From Roseburia sp. (lineage in GTDB: Bacteria; Bacteroidota; Bacteroidia; Bacteroidales; Bacteroidaceae), in contig JAMPEL010000004.1 of the NCBI GenBank assembly GCA_023665185.1, positions 10,489 through 74,488 of the forward strand: a stretch of 64,000 nt of DNA, written 5' to 3'. The notes under the pieces were generated by a model. That model ran no database searches and was not told the origin of the DNA. It saw only the letters and a program-made list of their open reading frames with translations. The position numbers were made by a program, and so were the translations under genes. Below are positions 2,576-43,488 of the stretch, one piece after another; the stretch's first letter is position 1, and every line of letters starts with the position of its first letter.

Positions 2576-2952
2576 TCATCCATCACAAAAAGCATATTAT
2601 TATTGATATTTTACAGCTTATTGACACAATACAGAGTCTTTGACAGACATTTTGCACCAGCATAAAAAGTTCGACAATCAATTCTTCATGTTTGGCAGAT
2701 ATAGAATCCCTGCTGGATATGGCAATAAAAAATCCACAGAAAGTGTCTGTGAATTTCGCACGGGATTCCCCTTTCTATTCTAATCGCTTGCTCTAAGACA
2801 TATTCCAAACTCACGTAAACCATACAGCCTTGAAGCAAGAGGACCCAACAATCAAAAAGAGGGTATGCGCCGACACGCACACCCTCTTGGCAAATAATCT
2901 AAACTAATACTAAATATTAAGAAAACAATCTTTTACCATTGAAACAAAACCT

Positions 2953-5121
2953 TTATTTCAACACCTTTGTAACATTTCCGTCCACATTGACAATGTAGAT
3001 GCCATTTCCTTCAACAAGGATTGGTTTGTTTGCCACACCATTTGCAACAAGCATACCGTTAGCAGCGTAAACCTTTACTGCTGCACCCTCTGCTGCATGA
3101 GCAACGATTGCATTGTCGCTGACAGTAACAACAACCTCAGCCTTGCCTGTTACAGCAGCGATTGCGTCTACCTCATTGTTTACAGTAACTTCAGCTACAG
3201 TTGTAAACGGACTTGCCGCATAAGAGTAAGAAACAGTCTGCACACCAACTGTGTACTTGCCGTTCTCCACATTCTCGAAAGTGTAAGAAGGGTCTTCGCC
3301 GCCGCTGAGCACGTATGCGCCAAACTGAGCGTAAGCCTTCTGATAACCAGTAGTCTCGTTTGCCGGAACAAGCATGCGCATCTCGCCTGTAGCTTCATTC
3401 TTGAGGTAAAGGTTGTACATCGGCTCGTTGCCGCTCATAGGAAGAGAAGCTGCATCCCATGCGAGAGTTATCTTGTTGCCCTCAACTGTTGCAGTAACTG
3501 TTTCCGGAGCAGACGGAAGAGTAATCTCAGCGTCTGTTGTATTGCGGCTGAAGAGCACTGTATCGCCAGCTGTGTACCAGTCAGAAGCCATCATATCCAG
3601 AAGTCCGTCACCGTCAAAGTCACCGAAGCTCATTGTCTCAGAGAAATGTCCGCCAATCTCACCTGGCTCATTGTCAGTAAAGAAGTCGATAGTGTAGTTG
3701 TTTGTGCTTCCGTTACTGTAATTGATAGCCCAACGCCAGTCGTTAATGCCCTCGTATGAAGTCCATCCACGGAAAACGAAATCAGGAATATCATCACCGT
3801 TAAGGTCGGCTACAGTTGCCTGACGGCATGTAAGTCCTGAGAAAGGAACGATGCCGGCAACTTCCTCATTGAACGCGATGTTGCCGTCCTCAGAAATATT
3901 TGTAAGCAGACAAGACTGCTTCAAGTCTCTGCCGCGCATCGAGCCAATAATCATAAGGTCGATTTTTCCGTCCTGATTATAATCCATTGCATGAAGGAAA
4001 CTGTCTTCTGTACCCCAACGCTTAGCCACATCAGTCACAGTCTCGCCCTCATTGCACAGCATGTCTGTCACATCCTGGAACTGGCCGTTCTGCATGTTGC
4101 GATACACACGGAAACCGTCGCCGCCTTCCTGTACACCTACAGCTGCGTCAGAATCATCACCGTCCATATATCCTGTAGCAACAATATCAAGCCATCCATC
4201 GTTGTCAAGGTCGGCAAAAATCACAGAACCATGACTCATAGGCTTTGCCTTCATTGTAGGTTCCTGAATGTATGAGCCAGGAATCTCTATACCGTCTTCA
4301 TCAACCGTAGGCTCTGTCTTCTTATATACACCTACCTTGTTTGTCTCTTTCTCCCATGCCAACGGATTGAACACGTCAGCCACTTCAAACGACTTGCCTT
4401 CCACATTCCTCAAAAGAGTAACGAAACGTCCGTTGTCGCCTGTGCCCTCTACAACAAGGTCTGGATAACCGTCCTTATCATAGTCGCCGATTGAGATACA
4501 TCCCACTTCCTGATCCTCATTGAAAGAATTGTTGTTGTTGCCGAAGTTAAGCGATGAGAGAGCCTCGTCGTTTACCTTCTCAAATTTGTAGTTGCCCAAG
4601 TTCTTTACAAGCACAAGTTCCTTCAATGTGCCAGTGTCGTTACCACCTCTGTTCAAGTAGATGAAATCGACAAGACCATCCTGATTGAAATCAATTGGAA
4701 GGCTACCCATTCCATACGCTGTGTAAGGAAGTCCGTTTGCCATACCTAAAGTTCTTTCCTGTTCCTGATAAGTCGGCTGTCCATCCTCATCAAGAATAGG
4801 ATTTCCATCCTCGTCTGTCACCGGAACCTGAATAGTCTCCTTCACCACTTCTGTGTCCATCTCAAACTGCAAGTTTCCAAGATTCTTTACAAGGAAACCG
4901 CCCGAAGTCCAACCGTGTATGCAAGATGTCCCACTATAATAAACATCCATCTTGTCATCGTTGTTGAAATCTGCCCAGAACGGAACTGTACGGTGAGTTG
5001 CACGTAATGCGTCAGAAAAGTCCACATCTCTTTGGAATGTGATTCGCTGCGCCTGTGCGTTTGTAGCCATACCTGCAAGAGCCGCACAAGCAAAAACTGA
5101 TTTTAGTGTAAAATTTTTCAT
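2953..5121 (-). CDS. FG-GAP/VCBS repeat protein with signal peptide and T9SS C-terminal sorting domain
   Basis: N-terminal signal (ALAGMATNAQA). Repeated DxDxDG / FGDFDGDG-type FG-GAP motifs. C-terminal tail (VKVYAANGMLV...GIYIVNVDGNVTKVLK). Confidence 0.8.
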   Translation of the reverse strand: MKNFTLKSVFACAALAGMATNAQAQRITFQRDVDFSDALRATHRTVPFWADFNNDDKMDVYYSGTSCIHGWTSGGFLVKNLGNLQFEMDTEVVKETIQVPVTDEDGNPILDEDGQPTYQEQERTLGMANGLPYTAYGMGSLPIDFNQDGLVDFIYLNRGGNDTGTLKELVLVKNLGNYKFEKVNDEALSSLNFGNNNNSFNEDQEVGCISIGDYDKDGYPDLVVEGTGDNGRFVTLLRNVEGKSFEVADVFNPLAWEKETNKVGVYKKTEPTVDEDGIEIPGSYIQEPTMKAKPMSHGSVIFADLDNDGWLDIVATGYMDGDDSDAAVGVQEGGDGFRVYRNMQNGQFQDVTDMLCNEGETVTDVAKRWGTEDSFLHAMDYNQDGKIDLMIIGSMRGRDLKQSCLLTNISEDGNIAFNEEVAGIVPFSGLTCRQATVADLNGDDIPDFVFRGWTSYEGINDWRWAINYSNGSTNNYTIDFFTDNEPGEIGGHFSETMSFGDFDGDGLLDMMASDWYTAGDTVLFSRNTTDAEITLPSAPETVTATVEGNKITLAWDAASLPMSGNEPMYNLYLKNEATGEMRMLVPANETTGYQKAYAQFGAYVLSGGEDPSYTFENVENGKYTVGVQTVSYSYAASPFTTVAEVTVNNEVDAIAAVTGKAEVVVTVSDNAIVAHAAEGAAVKVYAANGMLVANGVANKPILVEGNGIYIVNVDGNVTKVLK

Positions 5122-20679: not shown

Positions 20680-20763
20680 GCCCGAATGGTGGAATGGTAG
20701 ACACGAGGGACTTAAAATCCCTTGGCCATTATGGCTGTGCGGGTTCGAGTCCCGCTTCGGGTA
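20680..20763 (+). tRNA. tRNA-Leu (anticodon TAA)
   Basis: Cloverleaf read by hand: acceptor GCCCGAA/TTCGGGT, anticodon arm AGGGA-CTTAAAA-TCCCT, long variable arm, T arm GCGGG-TTCGAGT-CCCGC. No encoded CCA. Confidence 0.9.
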
Positions 20764-26787: not shown

Positions 26788-27007
26788 TATCTTTGCAGTG
26801 CATTTGAGAAAGAGTAGAACAACAGCCGGGGTACAGGATCGATTGGGATACTCATCAAATTTTAACTGAAAACCGAGAACGTTTCGTTCTTTAATGGCGG
26901 GCCACGCCTCGAAAGGGGTAACCTTTATGGTCGGTGGATTACAAAGAAGTCCGAACACTCAAATCTTGTTTACTCGGAGTTTCATCACATCTCCTCCCGG
27001 CTTTTTT
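26788..27007 (+). ncRNA. Candidate small structured RNA of unknown identity
   Basis: The -7 box TATCTTTG (26788-26795) is followed by ~200 nt with no ORF. The 5' agccggg (26824) pairs with the 3' cccggct (26995), which is followed by tttttt. Internal hairpins: gaacg/cgttc, ggcg/cgcc, aaagg/ccttt. Confidence 0.3.
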
Positions 27008-27061
27008 ACATAGGAGACTCATGGCTTCATACAAAAGGAATGCCGGAGTCTCTTTTATTAA

Positions 27062-27149
27062 GGAAAGTTGCCAGAGAGGTCGAATGGGGCGGACTCGAAA
27101 TCCGCTATACGGTTCTACTGTATCGGGGGTTCGAATCCCTCACTTTCCG
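27062..27149 (+). tRNA. tRNA-Ser (anticodon CGA)
   Basis: Acceptor GGAAAGT/ACTTTCC, anticodon arm GCGGA-CTCGAAA-TCCGC, long variable arm, T arm GGGGG-TTCGAAT-CCCTC, discriminator G. Confidence 0.9.
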
Positions 27150-36064: not shown

Positions 36065-37042
36065 ATGACACAGCGATTATTTATTCACATCACATTTTTA
36101 TCTCTGTCAGTTTTATCGTTTACAGAGACTGAAAGTCATATCCATCCTGTGGATATAACAGAGAAAATAGAACAATCGGACAAAGATACATTATCAATTG
36201 TTTTTACAGGTGACGTACTTCTAGATAGAGGAGTACGTCGCTATATTGAAAGCGAGGGAATAAAAGGACTGTTTGCAGATGTAGAAAACGATTTCAGAAA
36301 ATCGGACGCGACAGTAATCAATCTTGAATGCCCCATAACCGATACCATTTCGCCGTTAAACAAGAAATTCATCTTTCATGCTGACCCTATAGTAGCCTCA
36401 AAGATGAGAAGTATAGGAATCACTCATGCCGCACTTGCCAATAACCACACAATAGATCAGGGACGCAGAGGATTGGCCGCCACATATCGGCATCTGCTAC
36501 GGCACGGAATTGTTCCGTTAGGATACGGACACACACTTGAGGAAAGCCTTGTGCCGGCAATAATAGAGAAAAGCGGAATTAAGGTGGCTTTATTCAATGC
36601 CGTATTATTGACAATCGAAAACTGGTCCTCCACTATTGAAGGACAACCTAGTGTCTGCCAACCAACCATACAGGAATTGTCAAAGGCTATCTATAAATAC
36701 AAACAGTCGCATCAAGACACATATTGTGTAGCTATACTTCATTGGGGCATAGAATACCAAACAGTCCCTTCCATAAACCAACGATATGAAGCAGCTATGC
36801 TTGTAAACTCAGGAGCAGACGCAATAATCGGACATCATCCGCATGTCATACAGACAACAGATATTATAAATGGGAAACCAATATATTACAGTTTGGGAAA
36901 CTTCATTTTTGACAACACGCACCCTCTTGCACAAAATACACTGATGGTGCGACTATGCTTTACAAAAGACAGCATTGTATGCGAAGAAACGAAACTCCAC
37001 ATACAATGCTGTCGTCCTGTAAGAAAGCAATCAAACCATTAG
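36065..37042 (+). CDS. CapA family (PGA_cap metallophosphatase-like) protein
   Basis: FTGDVLLDRGV ... LANNHTIDQG ... HWGIEY ... GHHPHV pattern. Confidence 0.7.
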   Translation: MTQRLFIHITFLSLSVLSFTETESHIHPVDITEKIEQSDKDTLSIVFTGDVLLDRGVRRYIESEGIKGLFADVENDFRKSDATVINLECPITDTISPLNKKFIFHADPIVASKMRSIGITHAALANNHTIDQGRRGLAATYRHLLRHGIVPLGYGHTLEESLVPAIIEKSGIKVALFNAVLLTIENWSSTIEGQPSVCQPTIQELSKAIYKYKQSHQDTYCVAILHWGIEYQTVPSINQRYEAAMLVNSGADAIIGHHPHVIQTTDIINGKPIYYSLGNFIFDNTHPLAQNTLMVRLCFTKDSIVCEETKLHIQCCRPVRKQSNH

Positions 37043-37815
37043 TTTTTTATGTTTTCCCTTATCTTACCCAAATATTGCTGCATACGATTTTCATCCTTAT
37101 ATTCTATAATATCAATCAGTTCTTTCATCTCCTGACGAATCTGCTCAACCTGATCTTTTGTATACGGATTGAATAGGATTTCTCGCAACAAACAGTCATC
37201 CTCACTCAGCACACCTTGTGCAATCTTCATATGCCGCTTAAATGTGGTGCCCGGGGCATCCTGATGTTTCATCACCGCTGCAAATGCGAAAGTAGAAATA
37301 AACGGAATGGACAAAGAATAAGCCACAGTTTTGTCATGCTCCTCAAATGTATATTCACAGACATGAAGTCCAAGTTTTGAATACAGGTCTTTAAAAAATA
37401 TACGTCCCATGTAGTCCCCCTCGTTGATTACAATCGCATTTTCATCAGCCAACTTGCCAAGATTGGCGAAAGTAGGACCAAACATCGGATGAGTAGATAC
37501 ATAGCGAAAACCGCACTGCTCATAAAAATCCTTGAAACCAGTCTTTACAGATGAGATGTCACTTAAAATGCAATCATGAGGAAGATACGGAATAATCTCA
37601 CGAAATACATCCAATGTATATTTAAGACTCACCGCATTTATCACCAACTCAGGAGCAAAGGTTCTCACTTCCTCCTTATCCGTAAAACGCTGTGTATTGT
37701 ACATAAAGCGAAGTTTCTTGGCATCTATTTCATACACAGCCACTTCATGGTCAAAACTTAGAAGGTCGGTAAAAAAACTACCCATTTTACCGGCACCAAG
37801 TATGAGTATTCTCAT
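37039..37815 (-). CDS. tyrA: Prephenate dehydrogenase
   Basis: Rossmann motif MRILILGAGKMG and an HPMFGP motif. Last gene of the phe/tyr operon. Confidence 0.75.
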   Translation of the reverse strand: MRILILGAGKMGSFFTDLLSFDHEVAVYEIDAKKLRFMYNTQRFTDKEEVRTFAPELVINAVSLKYTLDVFREIIPYLPHDCILSDISSVKTGFKDFYEQCGFRYVSTHPMFGPTFANLGKLADENAIVINEGDYMGRIFFKDLYSKLGLHVCEYTFEEHDKTVAYSLSIPFISTFAFAAVMKHQDAPGTTFKRHMKIAQGVLSEDDCLLREILFNPYTKDQVEQIRQEMKELIDIIEYKDENRMQQYLGKIRENIKN

Positions 37816-37897: not shown

Positions 37898-38965
37898 TTA
37901 TTTATTTATGATTTCTATTTGCTGCCTCACACTTTCCTCATGGATTGCCTCAAATATCTGACGCACACATGACTGCTCAATGCCACAAAGACTTCCCTGC
38001 GCACCACGTTTGTCAAGGATCTCACCATACCGACTTGTCTGCACAATTGTCATCCCATGCTCTTTCTTGTACTGACCGATTTCACGAGAAATACGCATAC
38101 GCTTGGCTAAAAGATCAATTAATTGGTCATCTATTAAATCAATCTGCTTGCGTAAAGCTGATATATTCTCTGTAGTCTGAATTTCATCACGGATAACCAA
38201 CAGATTTAGAATATACTCAAGAATATCAGGTGTTACCTGCTGTTTCGCATCACTCCATGCAGCATCCGGATTACAATGACTCTCCACAATAAGTCCATCC
38301 ATACCCAAATCCATTGCCTGCTGGCAAAGAGATGCAATAAGATCACGACGTCCTCCAATATGGCTCGGATCGCATACAATTGGAAGATTTGGAATACGTC
38401 TGCGCAACTCTATAGGAATCTGCCACATCGGTAAATTTCGATATATTTTCTTATCATATGAAGAGAATCCACGATGTATGGCTCCCAGACGTTTGATACC
38501 TGCGCCATTCAGACGTTCAAGAGCACCAATCCACAGTTCAAGATCTGGATTGACAGGATTCTTGATAAGCACAGGCACATCTACACCTTTCAAAGAATCC
38601 GCAAGTTCCTGTACAGCAAAAGGATTCGCACTTGTACGCGCACCAATCCAAAGAATGTCAATTCCAGCTTCAAGAGCAGCCTCCACATGCTTTGGTGTAG
38701 CAACTTCTGTAGAAGTAAGCATACCAGTTTCTTCTTTCACACGCTTCATCCACGGCAAAGCAAGCAAACCATTTCCTTCAAAACCTCCGGGTTTAGTACG
38801 TGGTTTCCATATTCCGGCACGGAATATCTTTATACCGCAGTCAGCAAGTTGCCGTGCCGTATTCATCACTTGCTCTTCTGTCTCCGCACTGCACGGTCCG
38901 GCAATGACCAATGGACGTTTGTCCTCCACTCCTGTCAAATTAAGTGGTTGCAATTCAAGTTCCAT
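37898..38965 (-). CDS. Bifunctional 3-deoxy-7-phosphoheptulonate synthase / chorismate mutase type II
   Basis: KDO8P/DAHP-synthase-like TIM barrel (IAGPCSAE, CDPSH) plus a C-terminal chorismate mutase helix bundle (LRKQIDLIDDQLIDLLAKR). Confidence 0.85.
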   Translation of the reverse strand: MELELQPLNLTGVEDKRPLVIAGPCSAETEEQVMNTARQLADCGIKIFRAGIWKPRTKPGGFEGNGLLALPWMKRVKEETGMLTSTEVATPKHVEAALEAGIDILWIGARTSANPFAVQELADSLKGVDVPVLIKNPVNPDLELWIGALERLNGAGIKRLGAIHRGFSSYDKKIYRNLPMWQIPIELRRRIPNLPIVCDPSHIGGRRDLIASLCQQAMDLGMDGLIVESHCNPDAAWSDAKQQVTPDILEYILNLLVIRDEIQTTENISALRKQIDLIDDQLIDLLAKRMRISREIGQYKKEHGMTIVQTSRYGEILDKRGAQGSLCGIEQSCVRQIFEAIHEESVRQQIEIINK

Positions 38966-39014
38966 ATATTTTCAGTTTAATTATAATACTTTCTTTTTTA
39001 TATTTCCGAATACT

Positions 39015-40208
39015 TCAGTTCCTTCCAAAAACATCCTCTATTCGCTCCAAAGCCTCTTGCATCTTCTCATCTTTGGCACAAAGGGATATCCTTATATATC
39101 TCTCACCATTACTGCCAAATATGAATCCCGGAGTGATGAAGACTCTTGCCTCATGCAGCACTCTCTCCGTAAGTTCTTCTGCGGAAGAATAAATATCTGG
39201 CACTCTTCCCCACAGGAACATGCCTTGTTGATTTGTGTCAAAAGTACATCCCAAACACTGCATGATTTTCTCTGCTATACAACGGCGCGTCTGATAAGTC
39301 TCCACATTTGCATGATAATGCCACTCCTCTGTATTCTCATAAGCACGCGCAGCCGCAAGCTGCATCGGGCGGAAAGTTCCAGAATCAATATTGCTCTTTA
39401 TTTTCAGAATCCATTCTACAAACGTGGAGTTCGTGGCAAGCATCCCCACACGCCATCCCGGCATATTATGACTCTTGCTCATCGAATTGAACTCAATGCA
39501 GCACTCTTTGGCTCCCGGTATCTGCAAAATACTAAGATACTCATCCCTATTCAGAATAAAACTGTATGGATTGTCATTCACCACTACAATATTATGACGA
39601 ACTGCAAAATCCACTATTTTCTCATAAAGCTCACGTGTAGCACGTCCTCCTGTAGGCATATTAGGATAGTTTGTCCACATGATTTTCACACCGTCAAGAT
39701 TCATTCTCTCCATTTGCTCAAAATCAGGCTGCCATCCATTGTTCTCAAGAAGATTATAGTTGACTATTTCCGTTCCAAGAATACGGTTCAAAGAAGTGTA
39801 TGTCGGGTATCCGGGATTCGGAACAAGCACCTTGTCACCCGGATTCGCCAATGCCAACGTCACATGGAGTATTCCTTCCTTTGAACCAATCAACGGCTGT
39901 ATCTCCGTATCAGGATTCAGCTCCACACCATACCATTTCTTGTAGAATGCCGCCATAGCATTACGCAACTCAGGTATTCCCACTGTAGGCTGATAGCCAT
40001 GCGCATTATCAAGGCAGGCATTTTTGCAGAGCGTGTCTATTGTCTCTTTAGAAGGCGGCATATCAGGACTGCCAATTGCCAGACTTATTATATCCTTGCC
40101 CTCAGCATTAAGACGCGCCACTTCCTTGCCCTTGCGGCTAAAATAATATTCATTGACCGTTGATATACGGTCTGCCGGAAATATGTTCTTATTATAAATA
40201 TCAGCCAT
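39015..40208 (-). CDS. Class I/II PLP-dependent aminotransferase (probable aromatic/prephenate aminotransferase)
   Basis: NPGYPTY, NPYS, and the SMSKSHNMPGWRVG lysine motif. Embedded in the pheA-tyrA operon. Confidence 0.8.
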   Translation of the reverse strand: MADIYNKNIFPADRISTVNEYYFSRKGKEVARLNAEGKDIISLAIGSPDMPPSKETIDTLCKNACLDNAHGYQPTVGIPELRNAMAAFYKKWYGVELNPDTEIQPLIGSKEGILHVTLALANPGDKVLVPNPGYPTYTSLNRILGTEIVNYNLLENNGWQPDFEQMERMNLDGVKIMWTNYPNMPTGGRATRELYEKIVDFAVRHNIVVVNDNPYSFILNRDEYLSILQIPGAKECCIEFNSMSKSHNMPGWRVGMLATNSTFVEWILKIKSNIDSGTFRPMQLAAARAYENTEEWHYHANVETYQTRRCIAEKIMQCLGCTFDTNQQGMFLWGRVPDIYSSAEELTERVLHEARVFITPGFIFGSNGERYIRISLCAKDEKMQEALERIEDVFGRN

Positions 40209-40238: not shown

Positions 40239-41081
40239 TTACAATGTAGATTTTCCATCCTGATACTCGCCCAATATCTTCAGTTGCTTTGTAAGAGGAC
40301 GTATAGCATCTATCGACTGCCTGTACCTTATATAATCATCATATGTGACATCCACATAAAACAAATATTCCCATTCACGTCCGATGATTGGCAGCGACTG
40401 TATTTTGGTAAGATTTATCTTATAAAAAGAAAATATAGACAACACTTGGGAGAGGCATCCTTCATTATGGGGAGTACTGAACACAATACTTGCCTTGTTC
40501 GAATAACGAGGATTGCACAGTTCTTCTGCAATCCACGGATCACTAATTACAAGAAAACGGGTAAAGTTGTGCTTGTTGGTCTCTATACCTTCCTCCAGAA
40601 TTTTCATGCCATAAAGAGGAGCGGCAAATTTTGAGCAAATGGCAGCGTGTCCTTTCAAATGACATTCACTTATGTGCTTGGCTGACCCCGCTGTATCCTC
40701 TGTCTCCACAACCTTAAAGTCCGGATGCTTGGTCAGAAAATCACGACACTGCATAAGTGCCACAGGATGTGAGTTCACCTCCGTTATATCTTTCCAATCC
40801 TCTTCAGGAAGACACATGATACTGTGTGATATACGCAACTTATGCTCGCCTACTATCTGCATACCACTGTCACGCAGCAATTCGTAATTGTGCAGCAAAC
40901 TTCCAGCAATTGTATTCTCTATAGCAAGCAAAGCCACCACACTTCCGTCCGCTTTCATTTCCTCAAAAACCTGTTCAAACGTGTCGCAACATATAATGTC
41001 AAGTTCCTCTCCTTCGAAGAACTTATGGGCGGCAATATCATGAAATGACCCTATAACACCCTGTATTGCTACTTTTCTCAT
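40239..41081 (-). CDS. pheA: Prephenate dehydratase
   Basis: PDT domain plus C-terminal ACT domain (TRFLVI, ESRP-like region). Confidence 0.85.
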   Translation of the reverse strand: MRKVAIQGVIGSFHDIAAHKFFEGEELDIICCDTFEQVFEEMKADGSVVALLAIENTIAGSLLHNYELLRDSGMQIVGEHKLRISHSIMCLPEEDWKDITEVNSHPVALMQCRDFLTKHPDFKVVETEDTAGSAKHISECHLKGHAAICSKFAAPLYGMKILEEGIETNKHNFTRFLVISDPWIAEELCNPRYSNKASIVFSTPHNEGCLSQVLSIFSFYKINLTKIQSLPIIGREWEYLFYVDVTYDDYIRYRQSIDAIRPLTKQLKILGEYQDGKSTL

Positions 41082-41095
41082 TGTTTTATCTTTTT

Positions 41096-41128
41096 GAAAA
41101 AAAAATCCCGCTCTTTTACAAGCGGGAT
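41096..41128 (-). terminator. Attenuator terminator immediately upstream of pheA
   Basis: Minus strand reads AUCCCGCU-UGUAAAAG-AGCGGGAU followed by a run of 9 U. It ends 15 nt before the pheA ATG. Confidence 0.7.
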
Positions 41129-41158
41129 TATTATCTTTAATTTATTTGCATCGTCCAT

Positions 41159-41239
41159 TTATGCACATACAACTTCCCGCTTCACTTTATTATTAAAGTA
41201 AAAATAAAAAAAGTAATATGTACCGTAAAAAGACTTCAT
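41159..41239 (-). CDS. Phe/Tyr-rich leader peptide (26 aa) of the pheA operon
   Basis: Hand translation gives MKSFYGTYYFFYFYFNNKVKREVVCA. Ten of codons 4-15 are Phe or Tyr. It lies between a -7 box and the attenuator hairpin. Confidence 0.65.
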   Translation of the reverse strand: MKSFYGTYYFFYFYFNNKVKREVVCA

Positions 41240-41266
41240 AAATTACATTTATTTCTTATTTCGCTG

Positions 41267-41274
41267 CAAATGTA
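41267..41274 (-). promoter_or_regulatory. Putative -7 box (TACATTTG) for the pheA leader transcript
   Basis: Minus-strand TAnnTTTG match sits 28 nt upstream of the leader ATG 41239. Confidence 0.5.
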
Positions 41275-41428
41275 GCAATATTAGCTAATATGGCAAACAT
41301 TTAGTGACGTTTTTTAATCCACAGACGCTTTTTTATTCAAATCCATTCAACATACATTGATTCTAAATCCGAACATATCATGAAAGCGCGTCCATGCCTA
41401 AACCACTCATGCCACAAACAAATCAGTA

Positions 41429-42418
41429 TCAATACTCAATGTTGTAATGGTTTGAGTGTACCGCCGCGAAAAACTGTGTACGCTCAAAAGAAGTCTCGTC
41501 TGAGATGTTTCCCGCATTAAGCTTGCCACGGAACTGCTGCACGGAATCATATCCGTGTCTGCCCATCCAATCTTCAACACCTGCAATCATGTCTTTTACA
41601 GCCGACGCGCCATTTTTATACAATGCGCTGCACACCTCCACAGTCTGCGCGCCTACAAGCAAGGCTTTCACCACATCACTGCCACTATGCACACCGCCTG
41701 ATATGGCTATATTTATGCTTGGTATGAGAGCCGAACAAATGGCAGTCCAACGCAAACGCTCACAAATATCAGCCGGTGTACTGCATATCTCCCCACTTAC
41801 CGGCTTGATTTTCTCAATGTCAATGTCTGTCTGATAATGACGGTTGAAAAGCACTATATCACGTGCTCCATGAGCATAAAAAGAATTTACAGCCGCTACC
41901 GGATTGGTGAGTCCCTGTCCAAGCTTGATTACAACAGGAATACTAACAGCAGACTTCACAGCTGTGTATATATCCACCTGCTGCTCCTCGAACGCACCAT
42001 ACACATAGTCTTTTTCTGCACACACAGACATGATGTTCAACTCTATGGCATCAGCTCCGGCATCCTCTATGACCTTTGCGAATGTGCTCCACTCACCCAA
42101 ACGTGAACAACAAATACTGGCAATAACAGGAATAGACACCGCCGACTTGACGCTCTTTATAAGGTTGATGTAAGTATTAAGCACATCACCTTTTACATAT
42201 TCAGCCAATGAATCAGCAGCCTCACCAAGATCACCGCCAAGCCATTCCTGAGTTTGCATTGCTATTTGCTCCTCAAAAATAGATTTCAAAACTATAGCTG
42301 CCACTCCAGCCTCTTCAAGTTTCTTACATCTGTCCGGACTTGCCGTAAATCCGGAACTTGCTGCAATAACAGGATTCTTCAATTCGAGTCCTGCAAATGT
42401 TGTTTTCAGATTTGCCAT
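41429..42418 (-). CDS. Dihydroorotate dehydrogenase-like flavoprotein
   Basis: TFAGLELKNPVIAASSGFT and a TIM-barrel DHOD-family pattern. Confidence 0.75.
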   Translation of the reverse strand: MANLKTTFAGLELKNPVIAASSGFTASPDRCKKLEEAGVAAIVLKSIFEEQIAMQTQEWLGGDLGEAADSLAEYVKGDVLNTYINLIKSVKSAVSIPVIASICCSRLGEWSTFAKVIEDAGADAIELNIMSVCAEKDYVYGAFEEQQVDIYTAVKSAVSIPVVIKLGQGLTNPVAAVNSFYAHGARDIVLFNRHYQTDIDIEKIKPVSGEICSTPADICERLRWTAICSALIPSINIAISGGVHSGSDVVKALLVGAQTVEVCSALYKNGASAVKDMIAGVEDWMGRHGYDSVQQFRGKLNAGNISDETSFERTQFFAAVHSNHYNIEY

Positions 42419-42501: not shown

Positions 42502-43488
42502 TCAAATCCTTATACTAAAATTATATGGATTGATTTTATTATAGGCATCAAGCATCACATCCTCCATGTTTGTAAATTTGCCGCTAAGCTCCTTTCCTTC
42601 ATCAGGACTCAGCTCAAGCGATTTTTTCACATCGGCAGCCGCCCCTTCCTTATCACCATTCAAAAGACGCAACCCTCCACGAGTACGGAACAGTTCCGGA
42701 GACTCTGGATTCTGCTCTATTCCCTCTTCCATCACACTGAGGGCCTTATCGTTATTTCCTGCTTCCGAATAAATACGGCTCAGCTCAATATATGCCTGAG
42801 GAATGAAGGGATTCATGTCAATGACATTGCCATAGCATCTCTGCGCCTCCTCACTTTTTCCAAGAGCCGCACACACTATCGCCTTCTGAAACAACACTTC
42901 CTCGTCTGCCTCCGTATGTTCCATAATATAGTCCACATCTTTTTCCGCCTCCACATACTGCATCATCTCACATAATATTTGCGCTCTTAGAAGATAGGCA
43001 TCAAAGAAATCTGCTTTCGCACCGATAGCCTGAGTAACCTGAACTATCGCATTTATGCAATCTTTCTGCACCTTACACTTCTTTGCAAGCACATAATGAG
43101 GACGCGCCAAAGCCGAATCTATGTTCAATGCCTCATTACACCAATATTCGGTCTTTTCATAATCTTCAAGTTGAAAATATAAATCCGACAGTCCGATAGC
43201 CACCGACGCGTCAGCAGGGAGCAACTCATGCAACCTCACGTACTGTTCAACCGCATCCTCAAGTCTGTCGCCCGCAATCAGCACATTGGCAAAAGCACGA
43301 CGTATGTCAGCATCTTCCTCTATGGCAAGCGCATGTTCAAAACACTTTATTGCATAATCAGCCTTTCCCATTTTCAAAGCCTGCATACCATCATATTTCA
43401 GTATGTCGAAATCGCGTTTTTCCTTGCTAATCCGCTCATTCTCCGGAGTATCCTCCTTGCCTGTAAAAAGAGTCTTAAAAAAGCCCAT
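42502..43488 (-). CDS. Tetratricopeptide repeat protein
   Basis: Repeated 34-aa A/Y/L-patterned helices throughout. Confidence 0.7.
   Translation of the reverse strand: MGFFKTLFTGKEDTPENERISKEKRDFDILKYDGMQALKMGKADYAIKCFEHALAIEEDADIRRAFANVLIAGDRLEDAVEQYVRLHELLPADASVAIGLSDLYFQLEDYEKTEYWCNEALNIDSALARPHYVLAKKCKVQKDCINAIVQVTQAIGAKADFFDAYLLRAQILCEMMQYVEAEKDVDYIMEHTEADEEVLFQKAIVCAALGKSEEAQRCYGNVIDMNPFIPQAYIELSRIYSEAGNNDKALSVMEEGIEQNPESPELFRTRGGLRLLNGDKEGAAADVKKSLELSPDEGKELSGKFTNMEDVMLDAYNKINPYNFSIRI

Follow-up and report, generated by a model that had tools for sequence, protein, structure and literature searches.

Attenuators of aromatic amino acid operons have been predicted in the phylum Bacteroidota on several occasions. 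Song et al. (2005) listed, from the Merino database, a putative attenuator before the Bacteroides thetaiotaomicron genes pheA, hisHb, aroA(I-beta)-aroQ, and tyrA (PMC1173090, Table 7); Weinberg et al. (2010) described the Bacteroid-trp motif (RF01692) as a predicted peptide-leader attenuator in Bacteroidetes (PMC2864571); and a leader peptide containing phenylalanine (Phe, F) and tyrosine (Tyr, Y) was published in 2021 before pheA-aspC3 of Flavobacterium psychrophilum (PMC9723704, Table S7), with condition-dependent read-through reported for this leader. Here, we analyzed a 64,000-nucleotide stretch of a Bacteroidaceae genome (contig JAMPEL010000004.1 of assembly GCA_023665185.1; hereafter, the window), in which a short leader precedes an operon for pheA, an aminotransferase, 3-deoxy-D-arabino-heptulosonate 7-phosphate (DAHP) synthase fused to chorismate mutase (DAHPS/CM), and tyrA. 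Judging from its sequence and conservation, this leader is very probably a kinetic ribosome-mediated leader-peptide attenuator of the whole operon that senses charged tRNA-Phe and tRNA-Tyr. An earlier sequence-only reading of the locus had called such attenuation much less documented in Bacteroidales; this stands for experiments, whereas attenuators as such had already been listed or published (PMC1173090, PMC9723704).

The four-segment classical design is complete in the window (Table 1): segment 1 is formed by the regulatory codons, segment 2 is AAAGUGAAGCGGGAAGUUGUAUGUGC, and segments 3 and 4 are the 5' and 3' arms of the terminator. The sequence details given in the sequence-only reading, namely the -7 box, the open reading frame (ORF) with its five Phe and five Tyr codons, the terminator, the U9 tract, and the 15 nt that separate the end of this tract from the pheA ATG (41081), all proved correct on rereading. 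The terminator AAUCCCGCUU-GUAAAA-GAGCGGGAUU (41129-41104) has a 10-bp stem with 5 G-C pairs, and the proposed 8-bp antiterminator is indeed perfect, with AAGCGGGA (41182-41175) being the exact complement of UCCCGCUU (41127-41120). Two components had been overlooked: the region 1:2 hairpin (41223-41163), which is part of the minimum-energy fold alongside the terminator and pairs nucleotides 17-45 of the ORF with nucleotides 52-77, region 2 included, and the -33 TTTG, which gives the promoter the layout TTTG-N19-TACATTTG on the minus strand. The leader ATG at 41239 is separated from the -7 box by 27 nt and is preceded by an A-rich stretch instead of a Shine-Dalgarno sequence.

The density of F and Y codons in this leader is unique within the window. 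When F+Y were counted per stop-free 12-codon segment in all six frames of the 64 kb (~80,000 segments), at least eight were found at the leader ORF only (maximum 10), and the maximum elsewhere was seven. The 181-nt leader folds at -44.5 kcal/mol, compared to -25.6 +/- 3.8 kcal/mol in dinucleotide shuffles (z = -5.0), and none of the 200 shuffles was as stable. A nucleotide profile of the element detected a single copy in the window, and a window scan for other amino-acid-rich mini-ORFs ahead of T runs gave no second candidate. Because the A+T-rich region makes TTT and TAT codons cheap, and the Rfam matches at the site are driven by the terminator alone, one could suppose a chance ORF in a T-rich spacer beside the terminator of the upstream gene, or an independent small gene. 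The probability of this explanation is close to negligible given the unique F/Y density, the promoter located between the upstream gene and the ORF, the conservation of the ORF and both helices across 78 relatives, and the constant position of the element before pheA, whereas none of the 80 loci that we compared has the upstream gene of the window.

These loci were obtained by a PheA protein scan with one genome per species (PheA identity 70-86%) and belong to rumen and gut Bacteroidaceae metagenome-assembled genomes (MAGs), Phocaeicola, Paraprevotella, Prevotellamassilia, and Alloprevotella; the 78 loci with full 400 nt upstream were aligned with MAFFT (alignment A1). A separate PheA homologue search gave close relatives only (80-98% identity) and did not widen the taxonomic range. 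An F/Y-rich ORF was called if it had an ATG start, at least seven F/Y per 12 codons, and the core YFYFYF, and was located 50-175 nt upstream of pheA. Such an ORF was found in frame in 77 loci, that is, in 77/78 having the full upstream region; two of the three loci without a call are cut by contig ends, and the third, L075, is considered below. The RNA element was matched by the nucleotide profile in 79/80 loci, and the sole miss has 37 nt upstream, so all 79 loci with enough sequence possess the element. Thus, loss of the mini-ORF with retention of the hairpin, which the sequence-only reading had named as the observation that would speak against it, is not the pattern seen in the relatives.

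The dihydroorotate-dehydrogenase-like gene that precedes the leader in the window was found upstream of pheA in 0/80 loci. Since the element always occurs before pheA while the upstream gene varies, the element belongs to pheA, and assignment of the terminator to the upstream gene was ruled out by this synteny. The order pheA, aminotransferase, DAHPS/CM is kept in 72/72 loci, with tyrA next in 58 loci (the flanks examined were limited to 3 kb). In most loci, 7-40 nt separate the terminator from the start of pheA. Nineteen loci were missed by a finder that demanded a perfect terminator stem, but the alignment shows the hairpin in all of them, so these misses are artefacts. In one relative (L071, positions ~2925-3000, A1 columns 201-277), tandem CTCAAAAA-like units lie between the terminator and pheA and stretch the spacer to 90 nt.

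The promoter is conserved together with the leader. The -7 consensus TAnnTTTG, described in PMC9723704, was found in 74/78 loci no more than 80 nt before the leader ATG, the commonest distance from its last G to the ATG being 28 nt, and TTG or TTTG was found at the -33 distance in 72/78 relatives. By this position, the transcript has the mini-ORF at its extreme 5' end, after a 5' untranslated region (UTR) of ~20 nt, which is near the commonest 5' UTR length of 23 nt in B. thetaiotaomicron (PMC7366714). Positions -20 to -1 before the leader ATG contain 59% A across the relatives. Bacteroidota start translation without Shine-Dalgarno sequences, and the A-rich upstream stretch is consistent with this mode of initiation.

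The relatives provide a strong evolutionary coding signature, which favours translation of this ORF. Its ATG shows no variation in A1. In 72 distinct leaders, the codons of the F/Y run follow the scheme T-(A/T)-(T/C), with T at 96% of first positions, A or T at 97% of second positions, and T or C at 99% of third positions; the third positions are split nearly evenly (376 T vs 312 C), and this is the pattern expected if selection is for "Phe or Tyr" only. Reading these bases in frame +2 instead yields 68 stop codons, and of the 85 gap runs that fall within the aligned ORF, 84 have a length divisible by three. Each leader has at least three Phe codons (mean 5.2) and at least three Tyr codons (mean 4.1), so that both amino acids are apparently read. 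The F/Y run varies in length from 8 to 13 codons, and F and Y interchange freely upstream of its last five residues, FYFYF, which are invariant as a peptide. The Tyr codons of the leaders are mostly UAC (239 vs 101 UAU), in part due to the invariant UUUUACUUUUACUUU; this preference is opposite to that of the four operon genes in the window, which favour UAU (37 vs 9).

The stretch UUUUACUUUUACUUU is almost invariant, third codon positions included, and the ORF tail VKREVVCA is conserved at the RNA level, with UAA in place of GUG in 28 relatives that keep the helices. Both observations could be expected of an attenuator made of RNA only, in which a protein or small ligand on the U/A/C-rich repeats would set the switch and the ORF would be untranslated. 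We consider this explanation very unlikely, since it does not account for the invariant ATG, the free choice of T or C as third base where the run is variable, the gaps in threes, or the stop-free ORF frame as opposed to frame +2; furthermore, the "repeat" varies just as F and Y codons would, and no Rfam riboswitch or protein-binding family was found above threshold. For a translated leader, the near-invariance of UUUUACUUUUACUUU is explained by its use as codons and as a helix strand at once.

The stop codon defines two classes of leaders, which differ at A1 columns 57-76 (window 41190-41171). In the short class (28 relatives), UAA replaces the GUG codon 19, and the resulting 18-aa peptide ends in ...FYFSNK, which brings the stop right next to region 2, on its 5' side; in the long class (50 relatives), the ORF continues 7-18 codons further. 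The bases around UAA in the short class (AAGUAAGAGCGGGA vs AAAGUGAAGCGGGA) still pair with region 1 in a register shifted by one, and UAUGUGC, which the shorter ORF no longer includes, keeps its pairing with ACAUA of codons 7-8. By this pattern, it is the RNA of the C-terminal part (VKREVVCA) that is conserved, and there is no selection on the peptide. L001 and L002, the two closest relatives of the window, fall into opposite stop classes, and thus the switch of the stop codon happened more than once. The 26-aa leader peptide matched no NCBIfam or Pfam family at E-values up to 10.

Both helices of the switch are retained by compensatory changes. The terminator helix is 94.9% paired over the 78 sequences, with six pairs changed on both sides; its pairing/covariation score was reached by 0/500 shuffles, and the pairing was 38-56% when the partner was slid by 1-3 columns. 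The antiterminator helix is 96.8% paired (29-52% when slid). Column 161 in region 3, which is common to both helices, covaries with its partners in region 2 and region 4: 34 sequences have A-T-A at columns 69/161/177, and 25 have G-C-G. A complete three-way change is seen in L071 at columns 75/155/183, and L014 has a G-to-A and a C-to-U change at columns 73/157, with a G.U wobble retained for region 4. RNAalifold, when run without hints, returned the antiterminator as the consensus structure. On the MAFFT alignment, region 1:2 is only 76.7% paired, since short-class and long-class sequences use helix registers one base apart; when folded individually, 78/78 nascent leaders pair at least 8 of the 14 region-2 nucleotides with upstream bases (mean -19.1 kcal/mol, mean z -2.8). 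With the mini-ORF conserved and the terminator and antiterminator covarying, the attenuator reading proposed from the window sequence gains support from the relatives.

Under the proposed mechanism, transcription would start a few nucleotides past the -7 box, and the 26-codon leader would be translated as the RNA emerges. If Phe-tRNA or Tyr-tRNA is scarce, the ribosome would stall in codons 4-15 and cover region 1, so that region 2 (AAGCGGGA) could pair with region 3 (UCCCGCUU) once the latter is made; the terminator would not form, and transcription would read through into pheA. If both tRNAs are charged, the ribosome would move over region 2 (codons 16-25), or helix 1:2 would re-form behind it. 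With region 2 unavailable, region 3 would pair with region 4, and transcription would end at the U9 tract. Without translation, helix 1:2 would form and lead to termination too. We infer from this arrangement the termination itself, the response to the Phe/Tyr supply, and the coupling of the ribosome to RNA polymerase. The operon encodes the entry and branch-point enzyme (DAHPS/CM), a shared aminotransferase, and one enzyme per branch (PheA and TyrA), so a shortage of either amino acid should open the operon; a comparable design is the multivalent attenuation of the thr/ilv kind.

We simulated this switch with nascent RNA ending just before region 4 and with the ribosome footprint blocked, the footprint extending around the first base of the A-site codon from -15 to +13 at first and from -18 to +12 later. 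In the window, the 2:3 pairing probability is 1.00 with the A site on codons 2-15, which include all F/Y codons, and 0.08 on codons 17-19; without a ribosome, helix 1:2 forms, region 3 is mostly free, and the 2:3 probability is 0.25; a ribosome positioned at the stop codon gives 0.30 (wider footprint). For A-site positions on F/Y codons, the mean 2:3 probability over 63 relatives is 0.99. The sequence-only reading had supposed that a ribosome reaching the stop codon masks region 2. Such masking is partial in the window, where the stop is 14-21 nt 3' of region 2, and absent in the 29-codon homologues; thus, refolding of helix 1:2 behind the ribosome must be invoked. In the long-class relatives, masking would occur while the ribosome crosses codons 16-25, with local re-forming of 1:2 behind it. 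The stop codon of Escherichia coli trpL is immediately 5' of region 2, as in the short class.

Several observations weigh against this mechanism. In the long class, where the stop is ~25 nt 3' of the region 2 start and region 2 is not masked, the mean 2:3 probability is 0.87 without a ribosome and 0.71 at the stop, and in many of these relatives 2:3 beats 1:2 thermodynamically once region 3 exists. The full-length RNA at equilibrium forms the terminator with probability 1.00 at every ribosome position. Folding the complete leader at equilibrium with masked ribosome positions thus shows no switch and was replaced by folding of the nascent RNA; as the terminator always wins at equilibrium, the switch must be kinetic and decided before region 4 is transcribed. 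The choice in the E. coli trp attenuator is likewise kinetic. The near-invariance of UUUUACUUUUACUUU at synonymous sites indicates that RNA-level selection is mixed with coding selection in this part of the ORF. The uncultured Bacteroides MAG with locus L075 keeps the full leader RNA with the F/Y codons (positions 324-485, 95.8 bits) and has no in-frame ATG, GTG, or TTG before these codons, which could be leader decay, an unusual start codon, or an assembly error. A literature search found no experimental study of the attenuator in any Bacteroidales relative, and to our knowledge transcription-translation coupling has not been demonstrated in Bacteroidota. The operon and FYFYF-type small ORFs, sought by guessed locus tags in the supplements of a B. 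thetaiotaomicron transcriptome paper, gave nothing usable.

The same data bear on whether a translated leader could respond to a signal other than tRNA charging, either as a TnaC-like FYFYF arrest peptide or via Rho or control of pheA translation. The invariance of FYFYF as a peptide would fit an arrest sequence, and a terminator that is so near the pheA start in most loci could affect translation initiation on the read-through RNA. However, the run upstream of FYFYF varies in F/Y composition and length, as codon counting would require, and FYFYF itself pairs with region 2, which explains why it is invariant. A biosynthetic operon induced by excess Phe would respond with the wrong sign, and the stem rich in G+C, the U9 tract, and the covarying antiterminator point to intrinsic termination. 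We therefore give this alternative little credence and retain sensing of charged tRNA-Phe and tRNA-Tyr as the preferred reading.

The composition of the operon as given in the sequence-only reading was confirmed, with dehydratase, aminotransferase, DAHPS/CM, and prephenate dehydrogenase genes (Table 1) co-oriented on the minus strand and separated by intergenic gaps of 30-82 nt.

Table 1. Components of the leader and of the downstream operon in the window
Feature	Coordinates	Strand	Details
-33 element TTTG, Bacteroides-type sigma-A promoter	41294..41297	-	19 nt upstream of -7 box
-7 element TACATTTG, consensus TAnnTTTG	41267..41274	-	Sequence read
Leader ORF, 26 codons + TAA: MKSFYGTYYFFYFYFNNKVKREVVCA	41159..41239	-	ORF translation
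Regulatory codon run, codons 4-15, 5 Phe + 5 Tyr (10/12)	41195..41230	-	
Region 1:2 hairpin, F/Y codons 6-15 with codons 18-26, -19.3 kcal/mol	41163..41223	-	
Region 2 core AAGCGGGA, antiterminator 5' strand, codons 20-22	41175..41182	-	
Region 3 AAUCCCGCUU, terminator 5' arm; last 8 nt double as antiterminator 3' strand	41120..41129	-	
Region 4 GAGCGGGAUU, terminator 3' arm	41104..41113	-	
U9 tract, first two U's within stem	41097..41105	-	
pheA, prephenate dehydratase, first structural gene	40239..41081	-	NCBIfam NF008865, 197.9 bits
Class I/II aminotransferase	39015..40208	-	
DAHP synthase fused to chorismate mutase	37898..38965	-	
Prephenate dehydrogenase, tyrA-like	37039..37815	-	
Terminator-like hairpin closing operon, 19-bp stem	36968..37013	-	

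The hairpin at the operon end is located within the 3' end of a convergent PGA_cap-family gene (36065-37042, plus strand), which overlaps the tyrA stop by 4 nt, and may be a terminator embedded in a coding sequence. A 468-aa ORF at 38478-39884 on the plus strand, antisense to the aminotransferase and DAHPS/CM genes and without a Pfam match, is most likely a shadow ORF. Directly upstream of the leader, the dihydroorotate-dehydrogenase-like gene (41429-42418, minus strand) is followed further upstream by a TPR gene (42502-43488, minus strand). The TPR gene is the upstream neighbour of pheA in 19 related loci, and the gene order by the attenuator promoter looks like the result of a local insertion or rearrangement. 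Elsewhere in the window, the Rfam family Bacteroidales-1, a proposed 6S-like RNA, has a strong match at 26827-27008 on the plus strand (134.7 bits, threshold 60), directly upstream of a tRNA gene, with tRNAs located at 27062-27149 and 20680-20763; this match confirms the Bacteroidales origin of the window.

The element is real and strongly conserved, and it very probably represents a textbook type of control that has already been predicted in the phylum. It leaves the general understanding of attenuation unchanged, and as a clean case with very good conservation it exemplifies probable ribosome-mediated attenuation in Bacteroidales of the gut and rumen. Since no Rfam, NCBIfam, or Pfam model captures it, the element would be unannotated in thousands of genomes, and the present alignment could seed a new Rfam family. 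The reconstruction predicts that the operon, which feeds both branches of the pathway, has a single leader reporting the availability of two amino acids. The element could further be used as a handle for probing transcription-translation coupling in a phylum lacking Shine-Dalgarno initiation and as a Phe/Tyr-responsive part for Bacteroides engineering.

A tentative extension of this reading, whose chances we put at somewhat below even, is that the leader is a branch of an old Bacteroidota-wide (Bacteroidia and Flavobacteriia) bivalent Phe+Tyr attenuator that arose independently of proteobacterial pheL. If so, one could conclude from its strict conservation that RNA polymerase and the lead ribosome remain tightly coupled in bacteria whose translation starts without Shine-Dalgarno pairing, and UUUUACUUUUACUUU would be doubly coded, as sensor codons and as the strand sequestering the antiterminator.

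Comparison with the known families assigns the element to none of them by score. A gathering-threshold Rfam scan of the window gave nothing at the leader site; Phe_leader (RF01859) reached 24.5 bits (E = 0.22), below its gathering threshold of 55, and the Thr_leader and Trp_leader matches (29.2 and 25 bits, respectively) are terminator-only alignments. Bacteroid-trp (RF01692) gave no match at E-values up to 10, and the leader peptide contains no Trp. Attenuators in Bacteroidetes/Chlorobi are reportedly mentioned in the abstract of a 2004 work by Vitreschak et al. The Corynebacterium glutamicum aroR-aroF leader contains an F-Y-F motif, for which sensing of Phe and Tyr before the DAHP synthase gene was proposed; it belongs to another phylum, precedes another first gene, and has far fewer regulatory codons.

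Related systems have also been described within the same phylum. Bacteroid-trp is likewise a predicted attenuator of an aromatic amino acid operon, but with Trp codons in the leader and the trp operon downstream. The F. psychrophilum leader shares with the window its overall architecture, a mixed F/Y peptide of similar length (27 aa), and an operon that begins with pheA and an aminotransferase gene; it differs in having fewer regulatory codons and one Trp. Its region 2, GGGAUUGU, is at codons 20-23, and its terminator is AAUCCCG...CGGGAUU followed by U9. In the F. psychrophilum sequence, GGGATTGT at codons 20-23 complements ACAATCCC, and the leader ends with AATCCCGTC-TTTT-AGGCGGGATT and T9. 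An nhmmer profile of A1 aligned to this element by the terminator alone (15.1 bits, compared to 3.6 bits for the best of 200 shuffles). The attenuator listed for B. thetaiotaomicron precedes the same four genes in the same order, in the same family and at the same place; in the accessible part of that source, it is a terminator/antiterminator prediction only, and the text there does not describe the leader peptide, regulatory codons, or conservation.

From E. coli pheL-pheA, the present leader differs in several respects. It has no detectable homology to pheL; it contains Phe and Tyr codons in about equal numbers, whereas pheL has Phe codons alone; its operon additionally includes tyrA, DAHPS/CM, and the aminotransferase gene; it has a Bacteroides-type promoter and no Shine-Dalgarno sequence; and region 2 in the window is part of the ORF, whose stop codon lies further 3'. 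The common features are those of the design: as in E. coli pheL-pheA and the trp and his leaders, a short ORF rich in codons for the end products is combined with helices 1:2, 2:3, and 3:4 and an intrinsic terminator, and, as in pheL-pheA, this terminator is located just before pheA and is stronger than the antiterminator, so that the choice between them is kinetic. By its proposed mechanism, the element belongs to the E. coli pheA/trp/his class of attenuators.

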